From a bacterium (GTDB taxonomy: Bacteria; SM23-31): a DNA stretch of 64,000 bases. The stretch is taken from positions 1,118,782 to 1,182,781 of the forward strand of contig OZ244870.1 in assembly GCA_965221205.1 (NCBI GenBank), read 5' to 3'. Position 1 is the first letter of the stretch. Each line of letters opens with the position of its first letter. Position numbers and translations under genes: made by a program. Positions 29,624 to 64,000 of the stretch are shown here, one piece after another. Under the pieces are notes generated by a model that was not told the origin of the DNA, did no database searches, and saw nothing but the letters and a program-made list of their open reading frames with translations.

Positions 29624-29657
29624 TAGTACGCCCCTATAAATTATTTGATATAATATG

Positions 29658-32377: not shown

Positions 32378-33259
32378 CTACTCTACATCCTTCACACATC
32401 GAAAACCGGTATCTGCATAAGTGTTCGACTGAACATCGCTCGTGCGCCTTGAGCAGCGCATCAATCCCGGTCTTCCGTCCCAGGAGTTACCGCGCATCAC
32501 CTTTCGTTCATTTGGAACATCGTTTATAGGATTCTTTTTCGGGCTCCTGCTGTAGTATTCTGCATCGAAGTAGTCGGCACACCATTCCCAGGCATTACCG
32601 GACATGTCGTACAACCCAAAAGAGTTGGGCACAAAGGAACCAACGGGAGCGGTGAAAATGTATCCGTCATCATATCCTTCGGTATAGGACCATGTGACGA
32701 CCTTTATCAGATTTTCGTCGGCAACATTGGCCACGACCTCCTGCCCCAAGGGTTCGTTGCCCCACGCGTATCTGTAGCCTTTTGCCCCACCTCGGGCGGC
32801 GTATTCCCATTCGGCCTCGGTGGGCAAGCGTTTTCCAGCCCATTGGGCATATGCATCTGCATCGTTCCAACTCAGGTTCGTCACCGGATGATTGTTTTTC
32901 TCTGTTTGATGCAGATTACCCATCTGGTCGAACCTCCAGTTAATCTCCGGGCTCTTCTCCCAGCCGTCCCCTTCCCATACATAACCACCATCATTTTTTT
33001 CGGCATCAGTGACATAGTTTGTGGCATCCACAAATTCACTAAATTCTTCTAAAGTGACTTCATGGATATCCATATAAAACGCATCTAATTCCACTTCATG
33101 AACCGGTTTCTCCATGTCCTGCCCGTTGGCGTCACCCATCATAAACGATCCGGCGGGAATTAAAACCATACCGGAATGTGTTGTTTGTGATGTCTGACAA
33201 TTGAGAATGAGAACCAGTGCCATGATACCTATCAACGCAACTGAAAAGAGTGTTTTCAT
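32378..33259 (-). CDS. Formylglycine-generating-enzyme (SUMF1/FGE-sulfatase) family protein, secreted
   Basis: 293 aa with signal peptide. FGE-domain motifs EAEWEYAARGG, GLYDMSGNAWEW, MRGNSWDGRPGLMRCSRR and GFRCV. Confidence 0.8.
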   Translation of the reverse strand: MKTLFSVALIGIMALVLILNCQTSQTTHSGMVLIPAGSFMMGDANGQDMEKPVHEVELDAFYMDIHEVTLEEFSEFVDATNYVTDAEKNDGGYVWEGDGWEKSPEINWRFDQMGNLHQTEKNNHPVTNLSWNDADAYAQWAGKRLPTEAEWEYAARGGAKGYRYAWGNEPLGQEVVANVADENLIKVVTWSYTEGYDDGYIFTAPVGSFVPNSFGLYDMSGNAWEWCADYFDAEYYSRSPKKNPINDVPNERKVMRGNSWDGRPGLMRCSRRTSDVQSNTYADTGFRCVKDVE

Positions 33260-33539
33260 TGTTGTATCTCCTCAATGATTAATATGAAATACGATTAGCT
33301 ATATATTAACCGCTCTAATGTCATCCAGTAATTCTTCAGTGAATGGTCTGAATTTCTGTGCATCTGATATACTTATTGTGAATTAGTCCAGGATTAAGAA
33401 AGAAAAAATCTGTTATTGTTGATTAGAGCGAAGACTAATCGAGAGAAATGAATATACAATTTGAAATAGTTAAGTCAGGAAATGTAAATATTGAATACAC
33501 CAAGGTAATGAAATCCGATCGCGTTATTGGCTCAATTTT

Positions 33540-33770
33540 TTGTTTCGCGAGCACTTTCGGTGGCGATTTGTGCCCATTTCTAGAGCAAACTGTTATTGTC
33601 CACCACTTCTTCGGGAGAACTTCGAAGTACGGCATTTTACCGTGCTGCGAAGACCCTGCATTAGTGAAATCCTGATGGTTTTTGTCACCGACTTTAAAGA
33701 ATAACTTTGCCTTCGAATTTACCAGTGCGAACATGAGGCTGTTCTCGAAAATACCGTAGCCGCCGAACAT
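33540..33770 (-). CDS. TfoX N-terminal-domain-like small protein; the extreme N-terminus appears interrupted by an in-frame TGA
   Basis: MFGGYGIFENSLMFALVNSKAKLFFKV ... PYFEVLPKKW matches the TfoX_N pattern (MFGGyg...mFalv...lylK...yyevp). Confidence 0.4.
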
Positions 33771-34292
33771 CTTCTTATTCGTTACTGCACCAAGTGGTGC
33801 AAGAATATCAACAACGTGTCAGCACAGACTACCCGCTTCCTCAGTTAGTTTATTACCTTTTATTCCCAAATCAACATTTCTCCTTAAATTAAATACACCC
33901 AAAATTTAGTAGTGATATTGTATGTTTGGTATGTACGAGCCTCATCCTAAGCTAATAACCGACTCGTAAGATAAACAAAAATAAATTTTAATCAAATATT
34001 TAATCATGTTTTAGATGTTTTATACATTCCTCCCAAACCGTTCTTTACAATGTGTAAAAAACAGTATTGGAAAAGGAATTCTTTTCTTATTCTTGTTGTT
34101 GTAAAAGCTTAGAAAGAATATATCAATAACGGGTAATAAAAAAATTCCTTAAAAAGATAGTTGAATCTCTTAGATTTTAATTACGTTGGCTGATGTTTTC
34201 TGACAATATACAATCAGCATAAGAAAAAACTTGGAAATTGTTAAATATTTATAAAAATTAATGATTCCAAAAATGCATTTATAAGGCGCACA

Positions 34293-35399
34293 ATGAAAAA
34301 TAAAGTTGTAGACTTCCTTGCACATGCCGGAATTTGTGTGAACGGCAGAGATCCTTGGGATATTGTTATTCGAAACGAATCATTCTATACGAGAGTGCTG
34401 GCGAGCGGTTCGCTGGCATTAGGTGAATCATATATGGATGGTTGGTGGGATTGCGATGCTATCGACAAATTTTTTCATAAAATTTCCTTAGCCAGACTCA
34501 ATCTAAAGATCACTGATAAGAAACGGTATTTATTTACTTATCTCAAAGCTAAGGCGCTGAATTTTCAGCGTAAATCAAAAGCATTTCATAGTGGGCAATT
34601 CCATTATGATATTGGGAATGGCCTCTTTTCCAAGATGCTTGGTGAAAGGATGATTTATAGCTGTGCCTATTGGGTGGGAGCTAAGAGTCTTGATGAAGCA
34701 CAAGAAGCAAAACTGGAACTCATTTGTAAAAAACTCGGTCTGGAGTCGGGGATGAAAATTCTCGACATCGGCTGCGGATGGGGAGGATTAGCTCGCTATG
34801 CAGCCAGCAAATACGGAGTGCATGTCACAGGAGTAACGGTGTCTGAAAAACAAAAAGCTATGGGAGAAGAAAAGTGTGCTGGTCTTCCGGTTGAGTTACT
34901 TTACAAAGATTATCGGGATATAAACGGCACATTTGACCGGATCGTATCAGTTGGAATGTTCGAACATGTCGGATACAAAAATTACAGAACATTCATGAAA
35001 ATTACCAAACAGCTTCTTAAACCGGACGGCCTTTTTCTTCTGCATACTATAGGCGGGAATTTATCTGATCCGTCTAATGATCCCTAGACGAACAGGTATA
35101 TATTTCCTAATTCAAAAATACCATCATTGCAGGAAATCACCAAAGCAATTGAAGGTCTTTTTATTACAGAAGATTTGCATAATATTGGCGTTCATTATGA
35201 TAAAACCCTAATGGCCTGGTATAAAAATTTTAAAGATAACGGGGATTCACTTAAAAATAAGTACGATGAACGCTTTAAACGCATGTGGTCATATTACCTG
35301 TTGAGCTGTGCAGGGGCTTTTTGGGCTCGACATAATCATGTATGGCAATTAGTGCTTTCTCACGATGGCATACCGGGAGGTTATACTAGCTTTCGATGA
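34293..35399 (+). pseudogene. cfa: Cyclopropane-fatty-acyl-phospholipid synthase interrupted by an in-frame TAG at 35085-35087, at the conserved Trp of the DPW segment
   Basis: SAM-MTase motif ILDIGCGWGGLARYAA. ORFs 34293-35087 and 35127-35399 are in the same frame; (35088-34293) is divisible by 3. The sequence reads DP*TNRYIFPN where CFA synthases have DPWInkYIFPn. Confidence 0.75.
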
Positions 35400-36757
35400 A
35401 ATACGTAAATATTTCAAAGCTTTATATTATCGTACCAGAGCAATTTGTTCCGTTGAGGGAATGAACCATTTGATTCCATCTTCGGTCAAAAGCACGTTCT
35501 CTTCAAAATCCATCACCATTTTTCTGCCGCCCCATTCGGGCATTGGATAGTAAACGAAGAATTCAAGAGAATGGAGCTGGTTAAGTTTAAGTACAAGGTT
35601 GCTGCAATATGGCTGCTCTTCATCGATCCAAACGGCAGGTCCGAATCCGTGGCCCTGCTCTCCGACAGTATGTCATCCAATATTGATCTCAATATTTTGG
35701 CTGTCTGAAACGTAGTCTTCGAGACGACAGATCTCATATCCAAGTTCTCGCAGTTTATCATATATAACATTCAGTGTCTCAAGCCCTGTACGGCCCGGTT
35801 TTGTGAGTTTATGTGACAATTCCCGCACTTTCAACCTATGATCCCAGATTTTTTGTATTGTCTCCGGTATTCCGGTTTCTCCTTCACGGAGCACATATGC
35901 CCACCGTTCGATGTCGGTGCTATAATCGCCCATTATTTGGCTTATCCCAGCCAACAAGGTCTCCCCGTTGGATGACTAAATCTCGTGGTCCTCGAGTTGG
36001 TGTTCTGACAAGCGGGTTGCCGTCGTTGTCTGTCGGCATATGCGTAGTATATCCACGGGCTATCAATTGATCCGCCATCCAAAAGCTCAAGTCGCCCAAT
36101 GTCGTCACTCCCGATACAATAACCTCCATTGAATAAAGCTCTCTCAACTAGCTCTCTGGTTAATTCTATCGACTTTCTGAATAGTGAAATTTCACTTCCT
36201 ACTTTGATCGAACGAAAGTCGCTGACGAGATCCTCCGACGAGACAAGCCGTGCCGCATATTTCTCACCGAGAGTCTTGAGGAGAGCCAAATAATTGGTAT
36301 GGGAAAGCCCATCAGCAGTTCCAAGATTGGCGGGCATATTGACCGCAATGTTTTTTGGATCGCGCTCTTCAACGAACTTCCTCAAATTTTCTGTCACTCC
36401 AAAGATGTCGTAAAGCTTGGGACTGCCGCCGGTACCTAAGGCAGCTCGTTCGATTCTGTCACCGCCGCGGTGGGCAAACACTAAATAAGCCAGATTTTCT
36501 CCAAGATACCACTTATCCGAAGCGCCGCCGCCAACGTCTGAAGCAAGAAGCGGGTCAAGACGCTTATACTTCTGCACTATAATCAACATGTCGATGTTAT
36601 TTTCCCACATCGCTTTGGGCAGCACAATATCGAGCTTTTCCATGCGAATCAGATTCTTCATTTCCCAGCGGGCTTTTGCTTCCTGAGCGTGAGCAGGGTA
36701 TCCTTGGACAAAGAAAAGACCAGAAAATAGCATGAGTAATGGCCATGATTTACGCAT
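35400..36757 (-). pseudogene. Disrupted paralog of the secreted M24-like (creatinase-N / pita-bread) family; signal peptide and N-domain intact, C-terminal half in at least three frames
   Basis: The N-terminal ORF 35942-36757 aligns with the 48551 protein (LDIVLPKAMWENNIDMLIIV ... GGDRIERAALGTGG ... FVEERDPKNIAVN). ORF 35673-35957 contains EGETGIPETIQKIWDHRLKVRE. The 3' end translates to GFGPAVWIDEE...LEFFVYYPMPE in another frame. Confidence 0.65.
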
Positions 36758-36999
36758 AAAATGTTTGTATTGGATTTGCTTTACTATTTATTCTAACGTG
36801 TAGCTCTTTGTGGCCAATGCGCTTTTTGATCACACTTCGATGGTAAGTACGACTCGGAAACTTTGCAATAAATATCACAAAAACCTTGAGCAATTACAAG
36901 TAATATATCCGGTTTTAAGACAAAGTATTTCTCTACGCCGCTCAATGCTTAGAGTATACAGTTTCACCAGTCGAGTTTTCTTTAAACTATTCCCAGAAA

Positions 37000-38751
37000 C
37001 TACCATACAAACAATAATTTTGTTACAAACCAGGTAGTGAAAACAAGTAAAAAACATGCTCCGACTATTTTTATAAAACCTGGAAAGTACCATTTTAAAT
37101 TTGGTTCGTTGCGAAGCTCAATTGTGCTATCCGTTCCAAATATTTTATCTTTGCTATCCTCTGCATATATTTTTTCCACCTCAGTCACGCTCATTTCTTC
37201 CTGACCATCAGACATAAGACCTGCGTCAATTAAAGCGGGCAATTTGATTCCTGCATTAACCAGCCGCTCTTCACGTCCAACCGGTGTGTTTAATATAACG
37301 TGGAAACGTTTAACCTTGAGGGCATCGGCTGGTTTTCCGATCAAAGTCCCAACGACCATACAAAATAACGCCACACTAGTAGAAATGAACACCGTCTGCT
37401 CAAATGCCGGATTAATTGCATCAACAAACCCCAAATTCGACTGAATCATATTGGTGACCACAACCGATATATAGGTAACGATCCCACCACTTAATGAAAG
37501 CCACATACCGGTGCAATTGGCTCGCTGCCAGATCACTCCGAAATAGATTGATATTCCAAGAAACGAAAGCAGCGTTAATGTCAGCTTTACATAGTCTTCA
37601 ATCGATGAAAGGTTGTGTGTCGAAAGCGCCGCAATAATTATTGAGATTACTGCCCAAATACGTGCAACGTTGAGATAATGTTTCAGTTTTTTGCCAGGCC
37701 GAATTGTCTTCCTGTAGAGGTAATCTACTCCGATTGCGGAAGAGGTTGTGGCAAAGGTGTCCGCTGAAGACATTGCCGCAGCAAAAAAACTTGCAACAAG
37801 GAGTCCCAAAACACCAACCGGTAATATTTCCCCCATGACAATACCCCAGGCTAACTCAGGGTCATCCAGTCCGGGCCGATAAATTGCGAATAGAATACCA
37901 TAGATAGCAAACAACAACGTGATTAATCGTTTCCAGAGATGTCCCCATGCACATTGGGTCGCGGCTTTTTCGTTCTTTGAAACCGAGATCCAGTTAAATA
38001 TCCATGGTGCTGCAATGCCGCCAACGAGAGCAGAGAGATTTAGCGCTAGCACAGTCCAGATGGTCATCCGTTCTGGGTCAACTAAATTCCAGATTTCAGG
38101 ATGAGCAGCACTGTAATTCATCAAGGAATTCCAGCCTCCTGCATTGATCCATAAAAATGGCAACATAATGAAACTCAGAACAAAAAGACACATTAATCCC
38201 TGAAGAATGTCGGTCAATAACGCAGACATCATCCCTCCGGAAAATACATATGAACCAACAATGACAGTGATAATCCAGACACAATGCTGTGGTTGTAAAG
38301 TGGTCAACCCGGCCAATACTTTTGCTATGGCTAACAGAATCATCCCAATAAATAAAATGCAGATGATCGTTGCAACAACTGAATACAGTGAGGAGACATA
38401 TCTGTCGTATCGCATCTCAAGAAACTCAGATATGTTATAGACCCTCGACCTGCGGAAATAAGTGGAAAATAAGTAATAAATAGGAGTTGCAAAAAGGAAA
38501 CTCCACCAGTACCAGACCCCAGAAAGTCCGCTTTTATAGGCCTGTCCTCCTACGACAACTGCCTCGTTACCCGCAATCGCTGAAGCGAAGACGAAAATAA
38601 AGGACACAAGAGCACCCCATTTACCACCTGCTACAAAAAAGTCACCCAGGCTCTTAGTTCGTTTTACTCCTTGAAAAATGCCAATGTATAGTACAATACC
38701 GAAATATACTATAACTATAGTAAAATCAAACCAATGTATGCCCAGTATCAT
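37000..38751 (-). CDS. Sodium:solute symporter (SSS) family transporter with a C-terminal extension
   Basis: 583 aa with about 13 predicted TM segments. SSS-like N-terminus and a C-terminal cytoplasmic domain plus a final TM segment. Confidence 0.75.
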   Translation of the reverse strand: MILGIHWFDFTIVIVYFGIVLYIGIFQGVKRTKSLGDFFVAGGKWGALVSFIFVFASAIAGNEAVVVGGQAYKSGLSGVWYWWSFLFATPIYYLFSTYFRRSRVYNISEFLEMRYDRYVSSLYSVVATIICILFIGMILLAIAKVLAGLTTLQPQHCVWIITVIVGSYVFSGGMMSALLTDILQGLMCLFVLSFIMLPFLWINAGGWNSLMNYSAAHPEIWNLVDPERMTIWTVLALNLSALVGGIAAPWIFNWISVSKNEKAATQCAWGHLWKRLITLLFAIYGILFAIYRPGLDDPELAWGIVMGEILPVGVLGLLVASFFAAAMSSADTFATTSSAIGVDYLYRKTIRPGKKLKHYLNVARIWAVISIIIAALSTHNLSSIEDYVKLTLTLLSFLGISIYFGVIWQRANCTGMWLSLSGGIVTYISVVVTNMIQSNLGFVDAINPAFEQTVFISTSVALFCMVVGTLIGKPADALKVKRFHVILNTPVGREERLVNAGIKLPALIDAGLMSDGQEEMSVTEVEKIYAEDSKDKIFGTDSTIELRNEPNLKWYFPGFIKIVGACFLLVFTTWFVTKLLFVW

Positions 38752-39084
38752 ATCAAGTCTTCACTATTTTTATATCATTCATTCAATACAATATGTGAAT
38801 CTAAATTTAGAGATTTGTTCCTTTTCCAATTCTGTAAGTAAATTTATCCGGAAATAATTTCTATTATCTGATATTCCCTATATCAGTATTCTGAAAGAGA
38901 TTGACATGGATTTTATTGTAAAATAATGCTTTTTCAATATATGATGTACTTGGTTAGATGGTTTTGAAAGGTATGATTTAAATATTAAGTATGGCTACTA
39001 CAAGTACATTTAACCTCTCGGACAAGAACGATTTTGAACCTTTTCTATAGTGATCTAATACCCTTCATTACCTTTATCGCTACA

Positions 39085-40674
39085 TTACCACGGCAAAGGA
39101 GCGACACGGGGGAGTTTTTCATCACGCATTGCCGCATGATAGACAAACGATGCAAGGATGACCACATTTGTCATCGTGTTTTTAGGAACAAGACGGTCAA
39201 ACATATCCATATTAGTGTGGGCATTCGTTTCCATATCTAATCTGTCCTGATAAAAATAAAAACCCGGCAGTCCAACTTCAGCATACGCATCATGGTAGCC
39301 CATATTGCCACCGATAGACATTCCGCCAGGAATCAGATGTGCCATTCCCAAGCTATGTAACGGTTTCATCCACTCGGTAAAAATTGACCGAATCTCTTCA
39401 TTACCCATGACAGATACAGCCCGTATCTTACCGGTACCATGATCCACATTAAAGTATGCAGATAGATTATGATAATCCTTTCTGTATTCCTTTGTCGTCG
39501 GATCGGCAAAGTTTTTCCGGACATGACTCCGGTTACCCGCTAATTCTGCTCCATCATGACCACCCCAGAAGCCAACACGAATGGACCGTCGGGGTTGAAG
39601 GCCTAATTTTTTGAAGATACGCGCAACTTCCATTGCAGTAGCTACACCGGCTGCATTATCAGTTGCGCCGGTACCCACAGGTACAGATTGAAGATGACCG
39701 CCGAATACAACTATTTCATGGGCCAAATCAGTACCAGGGATCTCGGCAACAACATTATGGTCGTTTGGATCACCTCTGAAAAAGTTTGTTCTGATTTCGA
39801 TCTCCATTTCGACAGGAATGCCCTTATTTAGTATCCGAATGATCCGGTTATATTGTTCCACTGCCAAGACAAGTTCCGTGGGCTGGGGCGGCGCATCCTC
39901 TTTCCACAGTCCCGATGCTCTATCGTATCTACTGACTGCAACGGTTCCGAAATCATGTCGGCCGTCCGGGTGTGCAATTGCAACAGCACCTTCGGCAAAT
40001 ACAAAATCGATAATTTGCTGGCTCGTAAGTCTGCTTTCACCGGGATTGGGCCTTGTACGCTCCTGTCGGCGCAAATACAGATACAGAACTGAGACTTTGG
40101 GAGTTATGGGGATTTTCGCCATCTCGTCAAGCTGCTTTTCCTTGAATTTCGTCGCTATTGGTTCAAAACGGGGTGAGAGTTTCTGTTCTGGCCTTATGAA
40201 AATGATAGCATTTCGTAATTTCCCCTGGTATTGTTTCAGATTTGCTTCTGTAGCAAGTTCGTCAAAATTCATATAAATAGCATGTGCCCGGATCTTTCCA
40301 CTTGTTCCGAACGACCATGGTGCAGGATAGGCAATAACCGGCATATATTGGGGGGCTATCATGTGTACTGAGGTGTATCCAATATTCCAACCGACACCGA
40401 ATTCATATGGTTCAAGTCTGGCATTTGTGAGGCCATACTCCTTGAGCTGGTCTCTCGCCCATTCTGCAGCTGCACGATACGATGGTGTCTTTACATTTCG
40501 CGGTCCAAATACATCGGCCAGCCAACTGACATTCTCAATGACCTGAGAATTTTCAAACGCCTCTTCCATTATCCTCTCAACAACATCCCAGTAGATCGGT
40601 TCCTGCGCCGGTGCAGAAGATACAAACGCAAGCAATATCAATAAACCTATCAAACAAATATATTTAGCTTTCAT
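39085..40674 (-). CDS. Secreted M28-like PA-domain protein, paralog 6 (HD variant, closest to paralog 2)
   Basis: Signal peptide ending APAQEPIYWDVV. GGHLQSVPVGTGATDNAAG ... WGGHDGAELAGN. Tail DEKLPRVAPLPW. Confidence 0.6.
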   Translation of the reverse strand: MKAKYICLIGLLILLAFVSSAPAQEPIYWDVVERIMEEAFENSQVIENVSWLADVFGPRNVKTPSYRAAAEWARDQLKEYGLTNARLEPYEFGVGWNIGYTSVHMIAPQYMPVIAYPAPWSFGTSGKIRAHAIYMNFDELATEANLKQYQGKLRNAIIFIRPEQKLSPRFEPIATKFKEKQLDEMAKIPITPKVSVLYLYLRRQERTRPNPGESRLTSQQIIDFVFAEGAVAIAHPDGRHDFGTVAVSRYDRASGLWKEDAPPQPTELVLAVEQYNRIIRILNKGIPVEMEIEIRTNFFRGDPNDHNVVAEIPGTDLAHEIVVFGGHLQSVPVGTGATDNAAGVATAMEVARIFKKLGLQPRRSIRVGFWGGHDGAELAGNRSHVRKNFADPTTKEYRKDYHNLSAYFNVDHGTGKIRAVSVMGNEEIRSIFTEWMKPLHSLGMAHLIPGGMSIGGNMGYHDAYAEVGLPGFYFYQDRLDMETNAHTNMDMFDRLVPKNTMTNVVILASFVYHAAMRDEKLPRVAPLPW

Positions 40675-53340: not shown

Positions 53341-54162
53341 GGAAAAAATGTTCACTTTTTCGACATTGAATCGAAAACATAGTGGATTATGACAAATCAA
53401 AAAGCGGTCAGCGCACAAAGTTATTCCGGTGAGAACGAACCACACAGAGTCGTGATTAATTATTACTTAAAAAAATCTATTCGCACTAATGTTTCAATAA
53501 TCTATTTACGATGGTTTGAATTTAATCAATGAGCTGACAGGTCCTGGTGAGGCTGGTCTTAACAGTGTCGAATAGAGTATGACAAAACGGAAACGGAATA
53601 GAACACCTGAGAAAATCGCAAGCTATGACCAGCAGGTTGCCAGTGCAAGATTAAATTATTGGTTTGATTACTATGATCCGGTCGACTCTTATGGTGATGC
53701 AGACGAAGAAGTAGACAAATATGGCCGTTCTCTCAGCACACATGTACACATTGAGCCAGACTACGCAGCCGTGAGCATATACTGTACGGGTATCCCCCGG
53801 AGTTTTTACAGTCAAACTTTCTGCGGGTGGTGAGGAACATTTCAAAGAAGCGGTTATACTAAAAGATCATTGGTACGATAGATAAAATCTGTTTTAATTG
53901 TTCATTATATGTTCAAGCAATAAAAGCTCAATACAAATTCTAATTGGATGGTTCGCAAATCGTACAACCCGAGGAGTAAATATCACTTGAAAAAGTTAAA
54001 TGTATCTCTTATATTTATGACAATACTATCCAACTTGTTCTAACGACGTACCCTTTCCGAATAGTTACACAACGCGATGAAACAAATTGATAATTTGAAT
54101 TAGCATCAATTTTCAACACAAATTCAAATTGTGTTCTAATTGAAGATAAAACTGAGAGTATA

Positions 54163-55173: not shown

Positions 55174-55821
55174 AGGTTATTTCTCTGACTCCAATTCAAA
55201 AACTGAAATATATTCTTGGAATAATCTGTATCAGTTAAGAATAATTTGGATTGATTTTGACGTACAATTAAGAAACAGTTTTGATTTGGTTAGAGATTTC
55301 GGATTAGCAGGATTTCTCAGTGATTATATAGTAAAAGCAAGATTCAACTTTTTCAGCTAAGAAACTTCCCACCAACCAAGCCTGCTCTTACTCAAAATTT
55401 TATATGGCCTAATTCTTCATCACTTTTTGCTCTTTATAACAGTTTTTAATACCTTTTAATTTTGGGATTAATATACTTATTTACACTATTAATGAGATGT
55501 TCTTCTTATATCTTTAATTCGTTTAATCAAATATTCCATTCCTCAAGCGTTTCCGAGTAATGATGCCAGTTCAAATTCAAAAGATTTTTTCTGCTTCCAT
55601 TAATTGACTGACAATTTTTTTCTGCCTAATCATTCTTGTTCTCAGGCTGCGAGTTTTTCTCACCATTTGGATAATCTGAGGGGGTGGAAATAGTACTGTA
55701 GCGTTTTTCATTGCGTCAGCGAGGTTGCCACATACTGCTGATGAGTCCATACGAGCCACATCTGCTCTTGTGTCTTCACGGTAATAAAAGCTAGCATCGG
55801 CACTTATTTTATACTTCGGCA

Positions 55822-56848
55822 TTATTTCAATTTCCTCCAACCGTCAAAGGTTCGTTCGTCATGAATTCCATCTTGTGGCCCGGCGTTAGTTGATATCTGT
55901 ATTCGCTTGCAGGATCCTTCCGATACAAAACCATAGCACCCTCCGTCCGCTCCTTCTACGAGAGCACGAGTAATAGTGTACTGGACCAACTTATTTGTAG
56001 CTTTACCATTAAGTGTAGCCTGTGGTACATAAGGCTCAAGCAGATTGAGTTCTTCGGCGTAGCTTAGATGAATTTTTCTTAACAGCCCGTAGAGTGCGTC
56101 AGATGGCTTTTCAATGCTGAGTCCTAAATCCATAGCTTCTCTTCGGTTGATCGTATAGTCGTGACTTCCCGAATCTGCGCAGAGGAAGTCAATGATCGAT
56201 TTGACTTTTTTTCTATCGCCAACTTGTCGTCGTAACAACTTTTCAGCCAAGAACCGGATTTGTGTTTGTGTCCTGAATATTTCGCCAAGAACCAATGGGT
56301 GAATATGGCTGGTCAAGTCCAGAAGAACAGATGCAAGTGCCTGCTCTCCTCGAATTTTTAGCTCCTCGCGGGCTGCGTCTAAATAGCCACGAACATTTTC
56401 AACACTCACCGGGACTTGCTTGGATTGGCCGCCAATCGTTGCTTGTGGGTTTAGTGGGTTGTTTACGCTCGGATCTATGGGGCCTAGAGCTGCTTGCTTT
56501 GTCATGATTACCCGATCTGCACCGATAGAGATCAACGTACCCGCACTAAGTGCTTTCAGCGGGATCATAACCTCAAACTCGTCACAAAACATACGTACAA
56601 GATTCACTAATCGCCATGCCGCTAAAGTTTGTCCTCCGTCAGTGTGAAGAATCAGGGAGATACGCTGAGTCGGTCCTATCTTTTCGAGGAGGTCGACGAA
56701 TGGAACGATGCAATCCTGGGCAATGTGTGTTTCCATTGCCTTGACGGTCACTTGTTATGAACGACAGCACTTTGGTTTGTCTGTCTTGTTCGATGGAGTG
56801 ATAGAGTTTTTTGCGTTCAGAATAATTCATCGGGTTTAGCGCGTGCAA
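55822..56848 (-). pseudogene. ClpP/crotonase-fold serine peptidase of the S49-like 'serine dehydrogenase proteinase' (SDH) family; N-terminal ~35 codons in a different frame
   Basis: Main ORF 55822-56751 has ISLILHTDGGQTLAAWRLVNLVR...LSAGTLISIGADRVIM. The upstream N-terminus ...KVLSFITSDRQ is in ORF 56639-56848, frameshifted near 56750. Family assignment is from memory. Confidence 0.5.
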
Positions 56849-57451
56849 AGCCTACAATCGCGTAGTCTTTATTCTTTGGGTGTTTCAAGTATATAAGGCC
56901 CTTACTTTTACCATACTCATAGTGGGAATAGGTTTTTACAAGTTGTATTGTCTAGTTTCTTACCGGTCATGACCCCATCGAGCACTGGCCGCTTTTTTTG
57001 CGATTTCCGAACGTCTATCTTTGCTCAATGATTTAGCCCGAGATTCGTTCCGTGAGGCTCCGGTATTGAACTCTCAAAATAGACGTTTCGATTAGGCAAA
57101 TTACTGTCAAGAACCCAACCCTTATATTCCAGTGCTCTATCTACTCTGTATCGTACATCCATTTCCGACATTCAGTTTATCTCCATCTCGATTGCTCAAC
57201 ACTATGTTTTACCTCCCTATGATGAACTCCCGACAGTCCCCATATTGTGGTATCAAGAGGGCGGCTACTTTTTCTTTGATTTTATTACAACCTGCTTCGG
57301 TAAGTCCTTGGATTTAACCCTTATAATCCTGTTTAAAGCTTCCAAAAACCCCATTTCTTTAGAAAATATTCGTTTTGTCATTGAATGAGCCCCTTTGTTT
57401 TATTCCGAAATTGTTCATACTCTTTATTTGTATATATACAAGTCTAAACAA

Positions 57452-58174
57452 TTATAAGTTCCTTGTCAGTTCTTTATAAGACAATTTCTTCCCTCCGGTC
57501 CGTGAAAGAATCATGTTAAACATAGCGGAATGATTGCTTCTGTTATTATATCTGAATGTCTGCTCGTTAATATACCTCTGAAGGTGCTTTGGGGTTACAA
57601 AATGATGTATTCCATAAATAGACCGCTTCATTATAGCCCAAAACCCCTCAATGGTGTTTGTATGAACATCTCCCCGGGCATACTCATTCTTGCTATGATT
57701 AATACTTTCATGATCATAGAGCCTATTCAATTTCTTATAAGCATGCCACTCATCAGAAATAACCCGTGAACCGATATTGACATGCTCCAGTAACTTCTGC
57801 TCAACGGTACTTCTGTCAACGTGGGCAACTTGTTCAGCTTTTACCCTGCCAGTTTCCCTTTCAACCATGCCAACTACTGGCTCCTTTGTCTTGAGACTCC
57901 TGCCCTGAGTTTTATCTGTTTTCTTATTTCTATGTTTGTTCTTTTCCTTCCCTCCAATATAAGTATCATCTATTTCAACAATTCCTTTCATAGGAGCTGA
58001 GAAATTTTCATTTTTTACGGCTTCCCGTATCCTCTGAAGCATATAATAAGCAGTCTTCTGAGTAACCTTCATATCTCTTGCCAGTTGGTAAGAACTCATA
58101 CTTTTTTTGTGAGTAGTTAATAGATATATCGAGAGGAACCACTTACGAAGAGGTATCTTTGACCTTGCCCCCAA
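57452..58174 (-). mobile_element. IS1595-family transposase, 5'-truncated (lacks the zinc-ribbon N-terminal region), abutting the IS3-family element
   Basis: 240 aa starting at KIPLRKWFLSIYLLTTHKKSMSSYQLARDMKVTQKTAYYMLQRIREA, through the DDE region (ISDEWHAYKKL ... NTIEGFWAIMKRSIYG). No upstream zinc-ribbon coding on that strand. Confidence 0.7.
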
Positions 58175-58189
58175 AAGTTGATCCAGATA

Positions 58190-59400
58190 GTATATTAGTA
58201 CAGGGATTAGATTGAAAAGAAAGGAGCAAGATCAATGGCACGTAGAATTCACACATCAGAACAAATTATCCACAAGCTTCGAGAGGCAGAAGTACTGCTC
58301 GCTCAAGGTCAGTCGGTTCAACAAGCTGCTCGCCAGATTGAGGTTACAGAGCAGACCTATTATCGTTGGCGAAAGGAGTATGGTGGTCTTCGGGTGAATC
58401 AGGCGAAACGATTGAAAGCGTTAGAGAGAGAGAATATTCGCCTGAAACGCCTGGTTGCCGAGAAAGAGTTGGATATTCAAATCCTCAATGAGACTCTGGC
58501 GGTTGATGCAAAAAACTTCTGAGCCCGGCGAAGCGACGGGAGGTGGTGCAGCATCTTTGCACGACTCTCGAGATCTCGCAGCGCCGGGCCTGTAGTGTGT
58601 TGGGAGTACCGCGCAGCACTCATCAATATCGCCCGATTTCTCCTGCGGATGAACCGGTGTTCGTGCAACGTATGGTCGAGTTGGCCACGCAGTATGGTCG
58701 GTATGGTTATCGACGAATTACCGCACTGTTACAGCCAGAAGGCTTCAAGGTCAATCATAAGAGAGTGGAGCGTTTGTGGCGTCGAGAAGGATTAAAAGTT
58801 CCCCGGAGGCAACCGAAGCGCAAACGGTTATGGCTCAATGACGGTTCGTGTATTCGGCTGCGACCTGCGTACCGGGATCATGTCTGGAGTTATGACTTCA
58901 TGCAAGCACGAACCCGAGAGGGAAGGAGCTATCGTTTGTTAACAATATTAGATGAATACAGTCGGGAGTGTCAGGCAATTGTGGTAGGCAGGAGGCTGAC
59001 TCACAATGACGTCATAGAACATCTTGCAACACTGTTCGTGCAGCGAGGAGTTCCGGTTCACCTGAGAAGTGATAATGGCACAGAGTTCACTGCTCAAGCG
59101 GTCCGGACATGGCTCATGCGCCTGGGAGTAAAAACATTGTATATTGAACCAGGCAGTCCATGGGAGAACGGGTATATTGAGTCGTTCAATGGCAAACTGC
59201 GTGATGAAGTGCTCAACCGGGAAATCTTCGATACCTTACACGAAGCAAAAGTGCTTGTGGAACGCTGGCGAAATGAGTATAATCATAAGAGACCGCATAG
59301 TGCCCTCAGATACCGGCCACCCGCCCCCGCGAGGCCGTTATACCACCGGATTCGGTCTCAAGGCCAATGGATAATACAACAATGAATATATCGATGAATT
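58190..59400 (+). mobile_element. IS3-family insertion sequence: orfA (58235-58522, HTH) and orfB (58543-59385, DDE integrase) linked by an A_AAA_AAC -1 frameshift site at 58510-58516; element boundaries approximate
   Basis: OrfA ...TEQTYYRWRKEYGG with a leucine-zipper-like tail. OrfB has RSDNGTEFTAQAV and YNHKRPHSAL. OrfB is in the -1 frame relative to orfA, and the slippery heptamer sits 4 codons before the orfA stop. Confidence 0.8.
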
Positions 59401-59414
59401 GACTAACTTAAAAA

Positions 59415-60075
59415 GTGGCCCAAACATTAGGGGCAGGTCACATTGAAACGATGGATATAATGCGCTCTATTCAGCCGGACATCATGATTAACAACCGGCT
59501 GGGTGTCGGTACTGTTGACTATTTTACACCGGAAATGTTCATCCCTTCGCCGGAAGAAGCCAAAGCGCTTGGTAATTTCGAAACCTGCATAACAATCAAC
59601 AATATATGGTTTCATAATAAGAATGAAACAAACTGGAAGATCCCGAAAGAAATTGTCTGGGAAGATGACTAACGGAGAGATCGATCCGGTTGATGCGCAC
59701 ATCCTCACAGGAGCCGGGAGACGGATTCACACGTACGGTGAATCTATCTTCGGTACTCAGGCAAGTCCGGTTCCCCACCCGGAGTGGGGTCGTATTACGA
59801 TGCTCACCCTGCCCAACGGAAATACCTGTTTGTATCTTCATGTTTTTATTTGGTCGGAAACAGCCTGACATGACCGGTGGGGTGATGAGCTGATTGTTGA
59901 AGGTTTAAGCAACCGTCCTGTACAGACATATGCCATGTCTACTATTCCGCAAAGGAATTTTAATGCTTCCCGCAGAGGCAATTCAATAGTAATAGAGCTT
60001 ACCGGAAAAGCTCCAGACATATCCACGAGTGTGCTTGTGCTCGATGTGGAAGGTCCGGTCGGAACATCAAATTAA
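59415..60075 (+). pseudogene. 3' fragment of a GH29 alpha-L-fucosidase gene, 5'-truncated at the IS3 element and internally frameshifted
   Basis: MRSIQPDIMINNRLG...DYFTPE...FETCITINNIW, then (other frames) NGEIDPVDAHILTGAGRRIHTYGESIFGT and a C-terminal domain ...VIELTGKAPDISTSVLVLDVEGP. Confidence 0.6.
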
Positions 60076-60319
60076 AAATGAAAGATTAAAAAACAGCCTC
60101 AATTCCATACGGGTTAGGCTGTATAGCAATAAACCCTCCTTATATGTGCAAATAAAGTTTTAATCGTTGTCTATATTATATTGGAGGAGAGTTACCTGGA
60201 TTACTACCTTTCGGAGGAGGTGCGAAAATAAGATTTGGATAAACCAAATCTATCCCTTAGTTTTTAACCGAAAGTGTCCAACATGTTCTGATGATGTAAA
60301 CTCAATCAGGAATTACACA

Positions 60320-61867
60320 ATGAAAACTCCATATAATTTTATAGCAAGTCTATATTTGTTGCTTATAATAGTATGTTCTGTATCTGCACAAGAGCCGGTC
60401 TACTGGGATATTGTGAATAAAATCATGGATGAAGCATTCGAACATTCCCAGATAATGGAGAACGCCAGCTGGCTCACTGACGTATTTGGCCCCCGGCATG
60501 TGAAAACGCCTGCATATTTTGAAGCCGCAGAATGGGCAAAAAATAAATTAGAAGAATATGGTCTCGCAAATGCACGTCTGGAGCCGTACGAGTTTGGGAT
60601 TGGTTGGGAGAATAAATATACTTCTGTCCACATGATGGCTCCCCAGTATATGCCGATCATCGCCTATCCTGCACCGTGGTCTGCCGGCACGGATGGAAAA
60701 GTACGGGGGCAGGTTGTTTACATTAATTTTGATGACATCACCTCTGAATTGGATTTGGAACAATACCGCGGAAAATTACAAAATTCTATTATTTTCACAA
60801 GACCGATACAGAAGTTGTCGCCACATTATGAATCATTAGCAACGAAATTTACGGATGATCAGCTTGATGAGATGGCGAAGATTCCCATTGGCCCCCGGGC
60901 CGCTGAAGAGCGGCGTGCACAAAGACTCGGTAAAAAGAGACTTTCCCGAAAGCAGATCATTGAATTTGTATTAAACGAAGGTGCACGGGCAATTGTCCGC
61001 ACTGATGGGAGAAGAGACTTCGGCACCGTCGAAGCCGGAGTTGTTGGCTTTACTTTAGAAACCAGTCCGTGGGAGGAAAACTCCCCGCCTAATCCAACGG
61101 AGTTGGTCATTGCAGCAGAACAATATAACAGGATACTGCGCATACTGGAAAAGAGCATTCCCGTTGAGATGGAAGTTGAGCTCAGGGTAAATTTTGTCAG
61201 AGGGAATTCAAACGATTACAATGTTGTCGCTGAGATACCCGGCACAGACCTGGCAGAAGAAATTGTAATATTGGGTGGGCATCTTCAAGCAGATCATGCC
61301 GGAACCGGCGCTACGGATAACGCCGCCGGTGTGGTGGTTTCCATGGAAACAATGCGCATTTTCAAAAAAATGAGTATCAAACCCCGTCGAACCATCCGCA
61401 TAGGACTCTGGGGAGGACACGAAATGGGTACATTTGGTAATCGGAGTCATGTCCGTAACAACTTTGCCGACTTGAAAAAAAAGGAATACAAGAAGGATTA
61501 TAAGAATCTTTCCGCATATTTCAATGTCGATCATGGTAGTGGTAAGATACGAGGTGTATCCGTCATGGAAAACGAAGTGATCAGGTCAATATTTACCGAA
61601 TGGATGAAACCCCTGAAAAACCTGGGAATGACGCATCTTTTCAATACCGGAATGGCTCATGAAGCATATGCTGAGGTTGGCCTGCCGGGGTATTATTTTC
61701 TGCAGGACAGGATGGATATGGAAATGAATGTTCATTCGAATATGGATGTCTATGACCGTCTTGTTCCCGAAAATCTGATGGCGAATGTGGTCATTCTTGC
61801 AACTTTTGTGTATCATGCTGCTATGCGCGATGAAAAACTCCCCCGAATTGCGCCGTTACCCTGGTAG
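60320..61867 (+). CDS. Secreted M28-like PA-domain protein, paralog 7, the only copy on the + strand; the true start is MKTPYNF, not the ORF-caller start at 60167
   Basis: Signal peptide ending VSAQEPVYWDIV. GGHLQADHAGTGATDNAAG ... WGGHEMGTFGN ... HSNMDVYDRL. Tail DEKLPRIAPLPW. Confidence 0.6.
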   Translation: MKTPYNFIASLYLLLIIVCSVSAQEPVYWDIVNKIMDEAFEHSQIMENASWLTDVFGPRHVKTPAYFEAAEWAKNKLEEYGLANARLEPYEFGIGWENKYTSVHMMAPQYMPIIAYPAPWSAGTDGKVRGQVVYINFDDITSELDLEQYRGKLQNSIIFTRPIQKLSPHYESLATKFTDDQLDEMAKIPIGPRAAEERRAQRLGKKRLSRKQIIEFVLNEGARAIVRTDGRRDFGTVEAGVVGFTLETSPWEENSPPNPTELVIAAEQYNRILRILEKSIPVEMEVELRVNFVRGNSNDYNVVAEIPGTDLAEEIVILGGHLQADHAGTGATDNAAGVVVSMETMRIFKKMSIKPRRTIRIGLWGGHEMGTFGNRSHVRNNFADLKKKEYKKDYKNLSAYFNVDHGSGKIRGVSVMENEVIRSIFTEWMKPLKNLGMTHLFNTGMAHEAYAEVGLPGYYFLQDRMDMEMNVHSNMDVYDRLVPENLMANVVILATFVYHAAMRDEKLPRIAPLPW

Positions 61868-62100
61868 TGCGGCGATTAAGCTATTAAAGAGTTTTAGAGC
61901 AAGCTTAATTGTTCGCAAATCGTACAATCCGGGGAGCAAAAAAGACTTATAAAAGCCACATGTATATCTTAACATTTACATCATAATATTCGATACAATA
62001 TGACCAAATACATCACTTCATAAATAATGTCATATTTCAACACTAACCTGATTTATTATCTATGAGAGAAATTGTTATGAGGAATATCTGTTAAAATACT

Positions 62101-63101
62101 ATGAGATATGAAATGGAATACAGAATATTGGGCCGAACTGGATTGAATATCTCTCCAATATGTTTTGGTGCGGGCAACTTTGCTGAACCGACACCGGAGA
62201 AAGAAGCGAAAAAAATGATTTATCGGGCTGAAGATAACGGTATAAATCTTCTTGACACCGGCGACGTTTATGCCGACGGTGAAGGAGAACGGATAATCGG
62301 ACGGGCTCTGAAAGAAGAAGGATTGCATCAGAGAATGCTTATTTCTACAAAAGTGCTTCCGGACCAACTCTTTAAAGGACTGGAATATAAATCCCCGGAC
62401 ACGACCCTCATAATCGCGATCACTCCAGACTCAAGATTATCAAAGCGTGCGAAGCTTCTCTAAAACGTCTTCAAACCGATTATATCGATCTCTACCAGAG
62501 ACTCATCGCCACGCCCATTATATTCCATTCGAGGAGACTCTATGTGCTTTAAATGACCTTGTCCGTACTGGTAAGATACGGTATATCGGCTGTTCGACAC
62601 ATCCAGCTTGGGCAGTAATGGAAGCCGTAATGGTAAGTAGGATGAGCGGCTATGCCCAATATGCCTCAGAGCAGTCACTATATAATTTACTTGACCGGCG
62701 TCCGGCGTATTGAAAATGAACTTATCCCGATGTGTCAGAAGCTTTGTATCAATGGACTTGGCATCATTTCGTGGTCACCAACAGCACAGGGTGTACTTGC
62801 GGACCGGTATAGCGGCAGTTTCTATGCAGATCGTGTTACTGAACCGGGAATTCAAGTGGGAGTCGAGTTTGCAAAGATAGCTAAAAAAACCGGCGTTACA
62901 CCCATACAACTGGCGATACTCTGGTGTAAGACCAACCGGGGACCACAGCAACTCTCATGGGACCGCGCACCCTTGAACAGATTGAACATTTACCGCCCGT
63001 TCTCAACATGGAACTGGACAATGAAACACGAGCGGCATGCGATGAACTGGTTCCTCCCGGAAGCGTGGTGGCAGATTTTCACAACACCGCAGCCTGGTTG
63101 A
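62101..63101 (+). pseudogene. Aldo/keto reductase paralog in three frames
   Basis: ORFs 62101-62463 (MEYRILGRTGLNISPICFGAGNF...LLDTGDVY), 62447-62713 ([17 protein letters not shown]) and 62652-63101 correspond to consecutive parts of the intact AKR at 20431-21504. Confidence 0.65.
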
Positions 63102-63202
63102 AAGCGAAAACTAACTGAAAAGGCACAGCTTATTCTCGATACGTAATTTCTGACAAGGGAACAATTTTAATTTTAAATGATTGATAAGGTGGGTATCGGA
63201 TT

Positions 63203-64000
63203 ATGATTATTGATTGGCTGATCATATTTTTGTACCTGATCGGAACAAGCACTGATCAAGCAGTCACGGTAGCGTCAAAGACGTATGATTCGGGTGCCTC
63301 CGGAATTGGGTATCAGTGGCTTTGGCTGTTTTCAACACCTTTCTATTGGTTACTGGCTCCCTTATTCAGGGGTATGAGAGCGGTGACAATTGCAGATTAT
63401 TTTTCAAATCGTTATGGCAGAAGTGTAGAAATGCTTTTTGCCATTGTTGGCATGCTGCAATTAGCTGTCATGATTGGCATAATCCTCAGGGCATCAGGTT
63501 CAATGATCACTGCTGTTTCCGGGGGGGTACAATCAGCCCTGCTATTGCAATAATTGCCATGACAGTTCTGTTCGTGATTTACTGTGTTGCCGGAGGATTA
63601 TTTGCCACAATAGTAACAGATTTCATTCAAGGCATTGTAACAATTTTGCTCTCTTTTCTGATTTTACCCTTTGCCTTAAATGCTGTGGGAGGGCTTAAAG
63701 GATTACGAGAGATTGTCAATGACCCGTCGATTTTCGGTATCGTGGCTCTCGACGAGATCACAACATTTTATGTAATAATAATATCTCTCAATGCTCTTAT
63801 AGGCTGGGTAACACAACCAAATAACATGGCGCTGTGTGCCGCCGGCAAAACTATTCACGTGGATTATGTGTATGATCTGCTGATTCATTAATGCTCACTT
63901 CTGCAGCACTGTTTACTGAGAATATTTACAAACCCATGATCAACCCTGACCGGGATGATAAACATTATATCCTTTGCCTGGGCTTCAACATTGAGCAGTT
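63203..64000 (+). pseudogene. Sodium:solute symporter paralog (related to 37000-38751), missing part of the N-terminal segment and in two frames; continues past the window end
   Basis: ORFs 63203-63553 and 63316-63891 align to the first ~200 aa of the 37000-38751 transporter (YQWLWLFSTPFYWLLAPLF vs VWYWWSFLFATPIYYLFSTYF). Confidence 0.5.

Follow-up and report, generated by a model that had tools for sequence, protein, structure and literature searches.

Probable gene decay at an accessory, IS-rich rearrangement junction in the chromosome of an uncultured bacterium

The region from 31.5 to ~66 kb of the analyzed stretch of DNA (the window, 64,000 nt; scoring was carried to ~2 kb beyond its end) is very probably an accessory, IS-riddled rearrangement junction with genuine gene decay, located in the 3.4–3.8 Mb chromosome of an uncultured bacterium. 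The decay zone is contiguous over ~34 kb and holds six intact genes only. About 17 of its 25 gene-sized units (16–18) are disrupted by frameshift, nonsense mutation, internal deletion or truncation, against none of 26 in the proximal half (58–31226; Fisher p = 7e-8), where all ORFs are full length, densely packed and matched end to end by Pfam profiles. Coverage by ORFs of 200 aa or longer is 0.91 in the proximal half against 0.49 in the distal half, and long-ORF coverage is 0.24 at 40–48 kb. A preliminary description had reported at least twelve broken distal genes and no proximal ones. The contrast is in fact somewhat larger: every gene on that list, both IS1595-family transposases and, presumably, a GC-rich hypothetical included, is disrupted, as are a DUF5698/DUF2179 gene, a TfoX_N-like gene, a third IS1595 remnant, an M24-like N-terminal stub and, probably, a gene split over four frames at 41693–43059. 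Because additional broken genes occur from 31533 on, the left edge lies at ~31.5 kb and not, as had been placed, at 33 kb.

The full-length proximal genes comprise a run of branched-chain amino-acid genes (ilvB, in part, followed by ilvN, ilvC, leuA, cimA, leuC, leuD, leuB and ilvA), an amidohydrolase, an R-M pair, an SNF transporter, an esterase, a PALP enzyme, two uncharacterized 399-aa proteins, an AKR (20431–21504) and six tandem M28 peptidase genes, which align to one another over their full length. Inside the decay zone, the intact genes encode an FGE-sulfatase family protein (32378–33259, minus strand; profile positions 3–255 of 255), a 583-aa sodium:solute symporter (SSS1; 37000–38751, minus strand; 96 and 93% identical to its counterparts in L004 and L005, the sister-species sequences used as orthologue references), a 529-aa M28 peptidase (39085–40674, minus strand), a 476-aa M24-like peptidase (48551–49981, plus strand), an orphan TRAP solute-binding protein (DctP; 54163–55173, plus strand), beside which there is no DctQ or DctM gene, and a second M28 peptidase (60320–61867, plus strand). 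The last of these differs between strains by ~15 substitutions and zero indels, and all eight M28 genes, six proximal and two in the zone, can be aligned over their full length. Between-strain indels are confined to pseudogenes or intergenic DNA, and the ~8 kb of M28, SSS, M24 and DctP ORFs interspersed among the pseudogenes carry no lesion.

As genome erosion, this decay is of a common and familiar type. Genes that selection has ceased to maintain would be lost through ordinary mutation, by nonsense point mutations, small indels and, for the most part, deletions of 5–116 bp, with insertion sequences probably contributing truncations and rearrangements. Selection would still shield the two M28 genes, one SSS, one M24-like, the FGE-sulfatase-like gene and DctP. 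The process is progressive, in that old and very recent pseudogenes coexist and some deletions are still strain-variable, and the patch is one of several in this genome, in which a single IS3 element has recently proliferated. The likely cause is relaxed selection, through functions no longer needed and/or a small effective population size, while the junction itself was presumably produced by IS-mediated recombination.

The term hotspot, used in the preliminary description, is overstated, as further loci flanked by IS3 in this genome are comparably eroded. There, long-ORF coverage is 0.43–0.77, with values per 10 kb down to 0.32–0.48. Several of the IS3 copies have split or truncated genes nearby, and genes for a methylase, a helicase, a 2-phosphosulpholactate phosphatase, an amine-oxidase and the flagellar FliP are split. 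Because these loci are also eroded, the zone is one dense patch and not a unique hotspot. In addition, the intact half with which it was contrasted consists mostly of the essential ilv/leu operon, which fills the proximal 12 kb of the window, and of the strongly retained M28 array. It is therefore possible, though we consider it somewhat doubtful, that there is no local hotspot at all and that the window simply sets a core under selection beside a uniformly decaying accessory genome. However, ~34 kb with six intact genes and a coverage of 0.24 at 40–48 kb is extreme among the eleven loci sampled for ORF coverage, and the patch falls on a breakpoint of both synteny and inversion. Moreover, the pseudogene rate outside the window was sampled only beside IS3 copies, a bias toward IS neighborhoods that makes a higher genome-average coverage probable.

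The zone contains insertion sequences of two families. A heavily fragmented IS1595-family transposase remnant (40905–41623, minus strand) is spread over at least four frames, and a GC-rich IS1595-family transposase (45389–46393, plus strand) carries two frameshifts (frames 2 > 1 > 2), its DDE domain being matched in the last frame only (profile positions 34–153 of 153). The third (57455–58159, minus strand) has a complete DDE domain, and its 5′ end, the zinc-ribbon part, has been removed by an IS3-family element of 1279–1281 bp (58160–59440, plus strand; inverted repeats TGACCTTGCCCC/GGGGCAGGTCA). This element separates the 5′-truncated IS1595 from a 5′-truncated fucosidase gene and is present in at least 10 genomic copies at 99.6–100% identity (3.42 Mb contig). 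Synteny with L004 stops at ~40.7 kb, just left of the first IS1595 remnant. The genes that flank the M28 gene in L004, an S9 peptidase and a 1035-aa BNR protein, are found here ~25 kb away, inverted, just past the window end; the zone thus sits at an inversion junction relative to L004.

Two features of this region would fit a horizontally acquired island, transferred DNA that was never useful to the host and is now decaying. GC content reaches 50% at 46–47 kb (IS1595 and the hypothetical) and drops to 34–36% at 42–44 kb, against about 44–46% elsewhere, and the segment at 40.7–47.3 kb is not represented at the L004 syntenic site. Yet tRNA, integrase and flanking direct repeats are all lacking, and a good number of the broken genes come from large families native to this genome (M24-like, M28, BNR/Sortilin, SSS and AKR). 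Furthermore, the sister species hold vertical orthologues of cfa, M24-like copy 1, the TfoX-like gene and the DUF5698 gene at 85–90% nucleotide identity. An island origin is thus unlikely for the zone as a whole and could apply to sub-patches only.

The pseudogenes form an age gradient. At its recent end, in the left part of the zone, are four genes with intact orthologues in L004. The DUF5698/DUF2179 membrane protein gene (31533–32162, plus strand; 185 aa in L004), which marks the left edge of decay, has acquired a +1 insertion at ~31998 and lost 41 bp at ~32031. The TfoX_N-like gene (33435–33869, minus strand; 111 aa in L004) carries a stop codon in frame ahead of the present ATG, together with an inserted TC (2 bp) at ~33618. 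In the cyclopropane-fatty-acyl-phospholipid synthase gene, cfa (34293–35399, plus strand; 369 aa in L004), a single nonsense mutation has placed TAG at 35085–35087 where L004 has TGG (Trp), and the remainder is in frame. M24-like copy 1 (35430–36766, minus strand; frames -1 > -2 > -3; 458 aa in L004) has gained a G at ~36127, has deletions of 30 bp (~36042) and 5 bp (~35941) and contains one in-frame stop, and in strain L002 there is an additional T at 35893. The dN/dS values against L004 are 0.14 for cfa (codon-position divergence 0.086/0.068/0.281) and 0.135 for M24-like copy 1, compared with 0.10–0.25 for intact neighbor genes, so both genes were under purifying selection for the greater part of the period after the split. 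With one to four lesions each and a codon-position pattern that is still functional-like, all four were inactivated very recently.

At the other end of the gradient, M24-like copy 2, the BNR gene, the second AKR and the second SSS transporter (SSS2) are old pseudogenes with many lesions. M24-like copy 2 (50003–51479, plus strand) is interrupted by at least one frameshift and by five in-frame stops, and its codon-position divergence from the intact 481-aa L005 gene is nearly flat (0.27/0.22/0.30). The BNR/Sortilin-Vps10 pseudogene (51635–53882, plus strand), scored against an intact paralog (L036; 61% identical over the core), has at least five frameshifts and at least five in-frame stops. The AKR pseudogene (62113–63109, plus strand), scored against an intact 345-aa L005 gene, runs through frames 1 > 3 > 2 with five in-frame stops. 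SSS2 (63203–64000, plus strand; frames 2 > 1 > 3) continues past the window end and has in this strain a 116-bp deletion at 63241/2 and four more indels of 1–2 bp relative to the other two assemblies. Third-codon-position divergence from L005 is 0.30–0.43 for AKR, M24-like copy 2 and SSS2, against 0.17 for SSS1 between the same genomes; these three L005 genes may not be orthologues in the strict sense, and this makes the ages of the corresponding pseudogenes less secure. The breaks had been described as mostly multiple frameshifts, but frameshifts do not account for all of them: cfa is purely nonsense and the BNR gene has many in-frame stops.

The SDR pseudogene (43830–44608, minus strand) matches adh_short profile positions 1–127 of 195 only: its N-terminal 130 aa correspond to residues 3–139 of 3u9l, the catalytic middle is gone and the C-terminal 58 aa (residues 242–297) sit in another frame. 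The NADP oxidoreductase (F420_oxidored; 44669–45254, minus strand) matches residues 20–174 of the 245-residue PDB chain 3dtt; the ORF ends at the equivalent of residue 174 and the C-terminal part is apparently in another frame, judging from the translation read by eye. The SDH-type/S49-like (ClpP-fold) serine protease (55580–56851, minus strand; main ORF 310 aa) has a profile match that begins only at position 93, with the N-terminal part in another frame (56642–56851), and a T indel at 55653 is polymorphic between strains. The alpha-L-fucosidase remnant (59441–60072, plus strand) starts at the IS3 end, covers profile positions 230–300 of 345, is further frameshifted and has a 50-bp deletion at 59663/4 that is absent from the other two assemblies. 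The M24-like N-terminal stub is short (47750–47974, plus strand). The AT-rich unit at 41693–43059 (minus strand; frames 0 > 1 > 2 > 1) is a probable pseudogene, and the GC-rich hypothetical (46614–47224, minus strand) lies in two overlapping frames with a strain-polymorphic 2-bp indel at 46868/9. A family match was sought for these two and not found, and, as neither has a homologue, both count as broken by presumption only.

Relaxed selection following duplication had been suggested on the grounds that the broken AKR, SSS and M24-like genes have intact paralogs in the window. On this reading, redundant young duplicates would be decaying because the function is covered by an intact twin. Such family members do exist (20431–21504, 37000–38751 and 48551–49981), but they are only 30–58% identical in protein sequence to the broken copies and are thus old family members, not recent duplicates. 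In addition, L004 and L005 carry intact orthologues of the broken copies themselves, a dN/dS of 0.14 shows long-standing constraint before recent loss, and cfa, the TfoX-like, DUF5698, SDR, NADP oxidoreductase and protease genes have no paralog in the window. The duplication scenario is therefore improbable; the losses are lineage-specific inactivations.

That these lesions are real, as the preliminary description held in arguing for true pseudogenization of an accessory, IS-associated region rather than uniform error, is borne out by their reproducibility, their types and their sequence context. Two other metagenome chromosomes are 99.94–99.97% identical to the window over 27000–48754 and about 99.9% over 44163–59663, and two contigs of a k-mer (Logan) assembly of run ERR13605531 are 100% identical; the same broken gene calls recur in all of them. 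Relative to L004 the lesions comprise the TGG>TAG change in cfa, three deletions (5, 30 and 41 bp) and three insertions (1, 1 and 2 bp), and relative to same-species strains, deletions of 50 and 116 bp and a 2-bp insertion. Frameshifts are not concentrated in homopolymers: of roughly 14 indels placed at base resolution, only one lies in a homopolymer of at least 5 (G7/G5 at 63521), and runs of at least 6 are equally common in the two halves (54 vs. 64). These are metagenome contigs of megabase scale with 29–34x coverage, presumably assembled from long reads, and apparently from one project and probably one technology, so that a systematic platform artefact is conceivable for individual 1-bp indels; a few strain differences are indeed 1-bp changes in short runs (55653, 63361 and 63521). 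Nevertheless, consensus indel errors (from homopolymers or strain mixture) in genes that are truly intact are a highly improbable account of a zone with a stop-creating substitution, deletions of up to 116 bp, identical sequence in independent samples and a k-mer assembly, equal homopolymer density in the intact half, lesion-free ORFs interleaved among the pseudogenes and, in the old pseudogenes, a flat codon-position divergence that cannot arise from errors. What the zone shares with frameshifts caused by homopolymer errors in long reads is adjacent ORF pieces matching one protein family; unlike these, it has multi-base deletions and a nonsense substitution, no association with homopolymers, and lesions that fall only in non-selected genes and recur across samples and assemblers.

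IS-expanded, pseudogene-rich genomes in early reduction include those of Sodalis glossinidius, Mycobacterium leprae, Shigella, Yersinia pestis, Bordetella pertussis and Burkholderia mallei. The present genome resembles them in its many near-identical copies of one IS, its clustered pseudogenes with frameshifts and nonsense mutations, a decay biased toward deletion, IS at rearrangement or inversion junctions, intact core biosynthetic operons and signs of erosion in flagellar genes, a likeness that rests on ~260 kb of the genome. In contrast to them, its size (3.4–3.8 Mb) is only slightly below that of the sister species (3.8–4.05 Mb). Degraded islands or plasticity zones at IS-bounded breakpoints offer a second comparison, sharing patches of atypical composition, remnants of IS from several families, broken synteny with close relatives and an orphan DctP without DctQ or DctM. 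The zone differs from these in lacking tRNA or integrase hallmarks and because many of its decayed genes are members of vertically inherited peptidase and transporter families and not cargo.

One frame change in the zone is normal biology, not decay. In the IS3 element, orfA (58235–58522) contains the slippery site A_AAA_AAC (58510–58516) and orfB lies in the -1 frame, an arrangement that corresponds to the programmed -1 ribosomal frameshift of IS3 elements, whereas the other breaks in the zone have neither a slippery site nor a conserved position. This copy also has a private 2-bp insertion at 59328, which alters the last 23 aa of OrfB.

The window falls into two parts of very different gene integrity. 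From 58 to 31226, 26 ORFs lie back to back and none is broken, whereas 16-18 of the 25 gene-sized units in the distal half are (Fisher p = 7e-8 for 17/25). Coverage by ORFs of at least 200 aa is 0.91 in the proximal half versus 0.49 in the distal half (32 kb), where it falls to 0.24 at 40-48 kb. The proximal genes comprise ilvB (partial), ilvN, ilvC, leuA, a second HMGL-type synthase, leuC, leuD, leuB and a PALP enzyme, and further an amidohydrolase, an AT-rich restriction-modification pair, a SNF transporter, an esterase, a second PALP enzyme, an AKR and two proteins of 399 aa. The 20 ORFs scanned against Pfam match their profiles essentially end to end, and six tandem M28 peptidase genes align with one another over their full length; the preliminary description was thus right that the proximal 31 kb holds no broken gene. 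The decay that it placed from ~33 kb is present but starts at ~31.5 kb, since the DUF5698/DUF2179 gene (31533-32162) is already broken. It ends ~2 kb past the window, beyond which come an intact S9/Tricorn peptidase (690 aa) and a BNR protein of 1044 aa (locus L032).

Every distal gene named in that description is disrupted by frame changes, stops or truncation. Comparison with a related genome, as it had proposed, gives base-level lesions in four genes relative to intact orthologues on the complete MAG chromosome of a sister species (L004, OZ252239.1): cfa has a single stop (TGG>TAG) in an otherwise continuous frame, M24-like copy 1 (35430-36766) is spread over three frames (+1 G, -30 bp, -5 bp), the DUF5698 gene carries +1 and -41 bp, and a TfoX_N-like gene (33435-33869) carries +2 bp. 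Against genes of a second sister species (L005, OZ251221.1, also a complete MAG chromosome) or against paralogs, frame changes and stops are seen in the AKR (frames 1 > 3 > 2), M24-like copy 2 (50003-51479, five internal stops, at least two frames), the symporter gene SSS2 (63203-64000, frames 2 > 1 > 3) and the BNR/Sortilin gene, which compared with an intact paralog has five or more frame changes and five or more stops. The SDR matches residues 3-139 of PDB 3u9l, with 242-297 in another frame and the catalytic middle gone; the NADP oxidoreductase breaks off where 3dtt has residue 174 of its 245, the main ORF of the SDH/S49-type protease begins at profile position 93, and only profile positions 230-300 of 345 are left of the fucosidase. 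Of the IS1595 copies, the one at 45.4-46.4 kb has two frameshifts (frames 2 > 1 > 2) and the one at 57.5-58.2 kb has lost its 5′ end to an IS3 element. The DUF5698 and TfoX-like genes had been overlooked, as had a shattered third IS1595 (40905-41623), an M24-like stub (47750-47974) and a family-less gene on the reverse strand (41693-43059) that is probably broken.

Clear homology to full-length families (Pfam, PDB or orthologue matches) identifies cfa, both M24-like copies, the SDR, the NADP oxidoreductase, BNR/Sortilin, the SDH protease, the fucosidase, the AKR, SSS2, the TfoX-like and DUF5698 genes and IS1595; the 41.7-43.1 kb gene and the GC-rich hypothetical have no such homology. The former is AT-rich (34-36% GC), comprises ~450 codons apparently split over four reading frames and contains a 3-bp strain polymorphism at 42215. 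NCBIfam and Pfam scans assigned no family to the fragments at 41.7-43.1, 46.6-47.2, 53.6-53.8 and 55.6-55.8 kb. Public gene calls on these contigs contain many fragments of 40-170 aa; for annotation, the ~34 kb here are better described as pseudogenes and IS remnants than as dozens of short hypothetical proteins.

The intact SSS symporter gene at 37000-38751 (SSS1) has residue-for-residue copies on three kinds of record: a 3.42 Mb circular (ENA ERZ25067264, 34x coverage) and a 3.83 Mb linear metagenome contig (ENA ERZ25072076, 29x coverage), and short contigs of the Logan k-mer assembly of run ERR13605531. Identity of the window to the two large contigs is 99.94-99.97% over 27000-48754, ~99.9% over 44163-59663 and 98.6-98.7% over 59664-64000; to the Logan contigs it is 100% over 30054-39235 and 51333-56089. 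Divergence from the two same-species assemblies thus rises from ~0.1% to 1.3-1.4% to the right of a 50-bp fucosidase deletion (59664-64000), in a stretch that includes ~15 substitutions in an intact M28 gene and could represent a recombination tract or an allele of older origin. In a scan of species-representative genomes the two sister species were found, with SSS protein identities of 96% (L004, syntenic DNA 85-94% identical at the nucleotide level) and 93% (L005). No publication turned up in a literature search under the run, assembly or MAG accessions, and a scan of JGI metagenome contigs gave no match to the cfa lesion site with either the TAG or the TGG allele.

Five agreeing lines of evidence from these comparisons argue with high confidence that the ORF fragmentation of the distal half is biological, and the artefact explanation is rejected. 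Relative to same-species strains, the fucosidase remnant lacks 50 bp, SSS2 lacks 116 bp and IS3 orfB has 2 bp inserted. The proposed homopolymer check shows no concentration of frameshifts, as only one of ~14 indels resolved to the base lies in a run of at least 5 (63521, G7 vs G5). The two halves are alike in homopolymer content: runs of at least 6 number 54 in the proximal versus 64 in the distal half, and runs of at least 7 number 15 versus 23. Identical lesions occur in the assemblies of two other samples and in the assembler-independent Logan k-mer assembly. No lesion is present in the M28 genes, SSS1, DctP or the M24-like gene at 48551, although pseudogenes are interspersed among them; between strains, the M28 gene at 60320-61867 differs by substitutions only and the adjoining SSS2 pseudogene by five indels. 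The old pseudogenes bear a codon-position signature, nearly flat divergence in M24-like copy 2, that errors cannot create. The long-read metagenome chromosomes of the project are trustworthy at these loci. Three further explanations are rejected: an alternative genetic code or stop-codon readthrough is at odds with proximal and surviving genes that are all normal in table 11, programmed frameshifting outside IS3 with the lack of slippery sites and with lesion positions that vary between strains, and RIP-like homology-dependent mutation with paralogs that are too divergent and lesions that are mostly indels, not transitions.

Loss of these genes is not of one age. Relative to L004, dN/dS is 0.14 for cfa and 0.135 for M24-like copy 1 (intact neighbours, 0.10-0.25), with divergence concentrated at third codon positions; both genes appear to have worked through almost the whole period since the split and to have been broken recently. 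Divergence at the three codon positions is nearly flat in M24-like copy 2 (0.27/0.22/0.30) versus 0.05/0.02/0.17 for intact SSS1 in the same genomes, and intermediate in the AKR and SSS2, with L005 comparators that are possibly not strict orthologues of the old pseudogenes. Many lesions and relaxed codon-position patterns point to an old loss of M24-like copy 2, BNR, AKR and SSS2, and the 50- and 116-bp deletions, still variable between strains, indicate that decay continues. Deletions (5, 30, 41, 50, 116 bp) outweigh insertions (1, 1, 2, 2 bp). Bacterial pseudogene decay is known for a deletional bias, and these indel sizes fit it. The window gives a modest time-resolved example of gene loss, in which old, young and still-polymorphic lesions stand beside strictly preserved M28 genes, and the preserved genes hint at functions that this uncultured organism needs.

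The IS3 element (58160-59440) is a normal representative of its family, with an HTH OrfA (PF01527), an rve (DDE) OrfB in the -1 frame (PF00665/PF13683), a slippery heptamer A_AAA_AAC at 58510-58516 and terminal inverted repeats (TGACCTTGCCCC...GGGGCAGGTCA, ends 5′-TG...CA-3′). It is present in multiple copies: at least 10 of the 1279-bp element occur in the 3.42 Mb contig at 99.6-100% identity, which points to a recent bloom, and several at 98% in L005. Target-site duplications were examined as a test for IS-IS recombination; one copy has a clear 4-bp duplication and most have no obvious one. At the three IS1595 loci the DDE domain is present, and no ORF joins the zinc ribbon to DDE_Tnp_IS1595 in one frame; from their sequences, all three are judged family-derived remnants, not functional members. 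The IS3 is flanked by a 5′-truncated IS1595 and the 5′-truncated fucosidase gene, and this arrangement bears the marks of an IS-associated deletion or rearrangement, not of a simple insertion.

Synteny with L004 extends over 30.0-40.7 kb (M28 array end, DUF5698, FGE-sulfatase, TfoX-like, cfa, M24-like, SSS, M28) and breaks off there. The M28 gene of L004 has a 419-aa gene, a 624-aa gene, a 1035-aa BNR gene and an S9 peptidase in front of it; in the window's genome the S9 and BNR orthologues (89-90% protein identity) lie inverted just past the window end. The ~25 kb in between, with three IS1595 remnants, a GC-rich patch, AT-rich patches and one IS3, is the most eroded part. Composition patches and the absence of this block from the syntenic site of L004 would fit a horizontally acquired island; much of the distal content is vertically inherited, and no tRNA, integrase or flanking direct repeats were found in the window, nor did Rfam and tRNA scans of it return anything. 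Mechanistically, this is ordinary mutational decay at a rearrangement junction rich in IS elements, and nothing new is implied. The earlier reading of real pseudogenisation in an accessory region near IS elements is supported.

Whether this is a local hotspot or the general condition of the genome is answered partly by both. Ten IS3-centred 20-kb loci of the same genome have long-ORF coverage of 0.43-0.77 and contain many intact housekeeping genes beside split or truncated ones: an N6 methylase (313+167 aa), a helicase (409+140+203 aa), a 2-phosphosulpholactate phosphatase (64+137 aa), an amine oxidase (255+50 aa), FliP (127 aa) and bits of IS1595. At 0.49, the distal half is at the low end of the sampled loci but not unique. 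The sharp contrast between the halves arises in good part because the proximal half consists of an essential ilv/leu operon and a strongly retained peptidase array. Flagellar genes are apparently eroded or interrupted: the 127-aa FliP lies beside FliO with no fliQ, fliR or flhB following (L030 5156-6296), and in the sister species IS3 directly follows fliF (L039 15455-19526).

IS expansion with rearrangement and a build-up of pseudogenes while selection is relaxed or inefficient is a familiar picture, for which the best descriptions come from bacteria that became niche-restricted recently (Sodalis, M. leprae, Shigella, B. pertussis and B. mallei, for example). The window matches this picture and its organism may belong to that category; the decay is a further instance of an already known phenomenon. 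The recent IS3 bloom, young pseudogenes with a purifying-selection signature, strain-polymorphic deletions and flagellar gene erosion would fit an organism at the onset of reductive genome evolution, with a recent shift to a restricted (host-, particle- or consortium-bound) lifestyle and a retained peptide-scavenging core (M28 array, an SSS transporter, branched-chain amino-acid synthesis); we regard this as a tentative and rather unlikely reading. The proposal that selection was relaxed after duplication is not supported: intact family members in the window share only 30-58% identity with the broken copies, sister species carry intact orthologues of these copies themselves, and for six of the broken genes the window contains no paralog. 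By tblastn, the fucosidase remnant was not matched by an intact paralog (L035), which so belongs to a different GH29 lineage.

Eight M28 paralogs, 54-82% identical, occur in the 64 kb (21593-31226, 39085-40674, 60320-61867). Six form a head-to-tail array, all eight are intact even beside destroyed neighbours, and additional copies are located elsewhere in the genome (L030, L035, L036); the family has expanded under strong selection. Immediately upstream of the AKR and this array, the adjacent 399-aa proteins of identical length (17673-18872 and 19100-20299, reverse strand) are presumably paralogs; neither matches a Pfam family, and an NCBIfam scan of the first gave no meaningful match. A restriction-modification island (12231-14162), AT-rich at 29-32% GC, separates the amidohydrolase from the SNF transporter; it encodes an N4/N6 DNA methylase that has a staphylococcal-nuclease-like domain fused to it and an MjaI-type restriction endonuclease. 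The DctP gene (54163-55173, TRAP solute-binding protein) is intact with no DctQ or DctM membrane partner nearby; its closest homologue, in the L005 genome (74% identity), is an orphan too and has other surroundings, and in the search for a syntenic intact version of 50-57 kb through that locus DctP alone aligned. A conserved intergenic motif of ~64 nt (core TTCGCAAATCGTAYA ... TAYAAYCCGGGGAGCAAAAA) occurs at 47463-47526, 51482-51545, 53948-54011 and 61908-61971 on the forward strand and at 40763-40782 on the reverse strand, 90-190 nt upstream of M24-like, BNR, DctP, AKR and M28 genes. It is also present in the sister species (L039 1778-1877) and could act as a promoter or operator common to the genes for peptidases and transport, or be a small repeat element.
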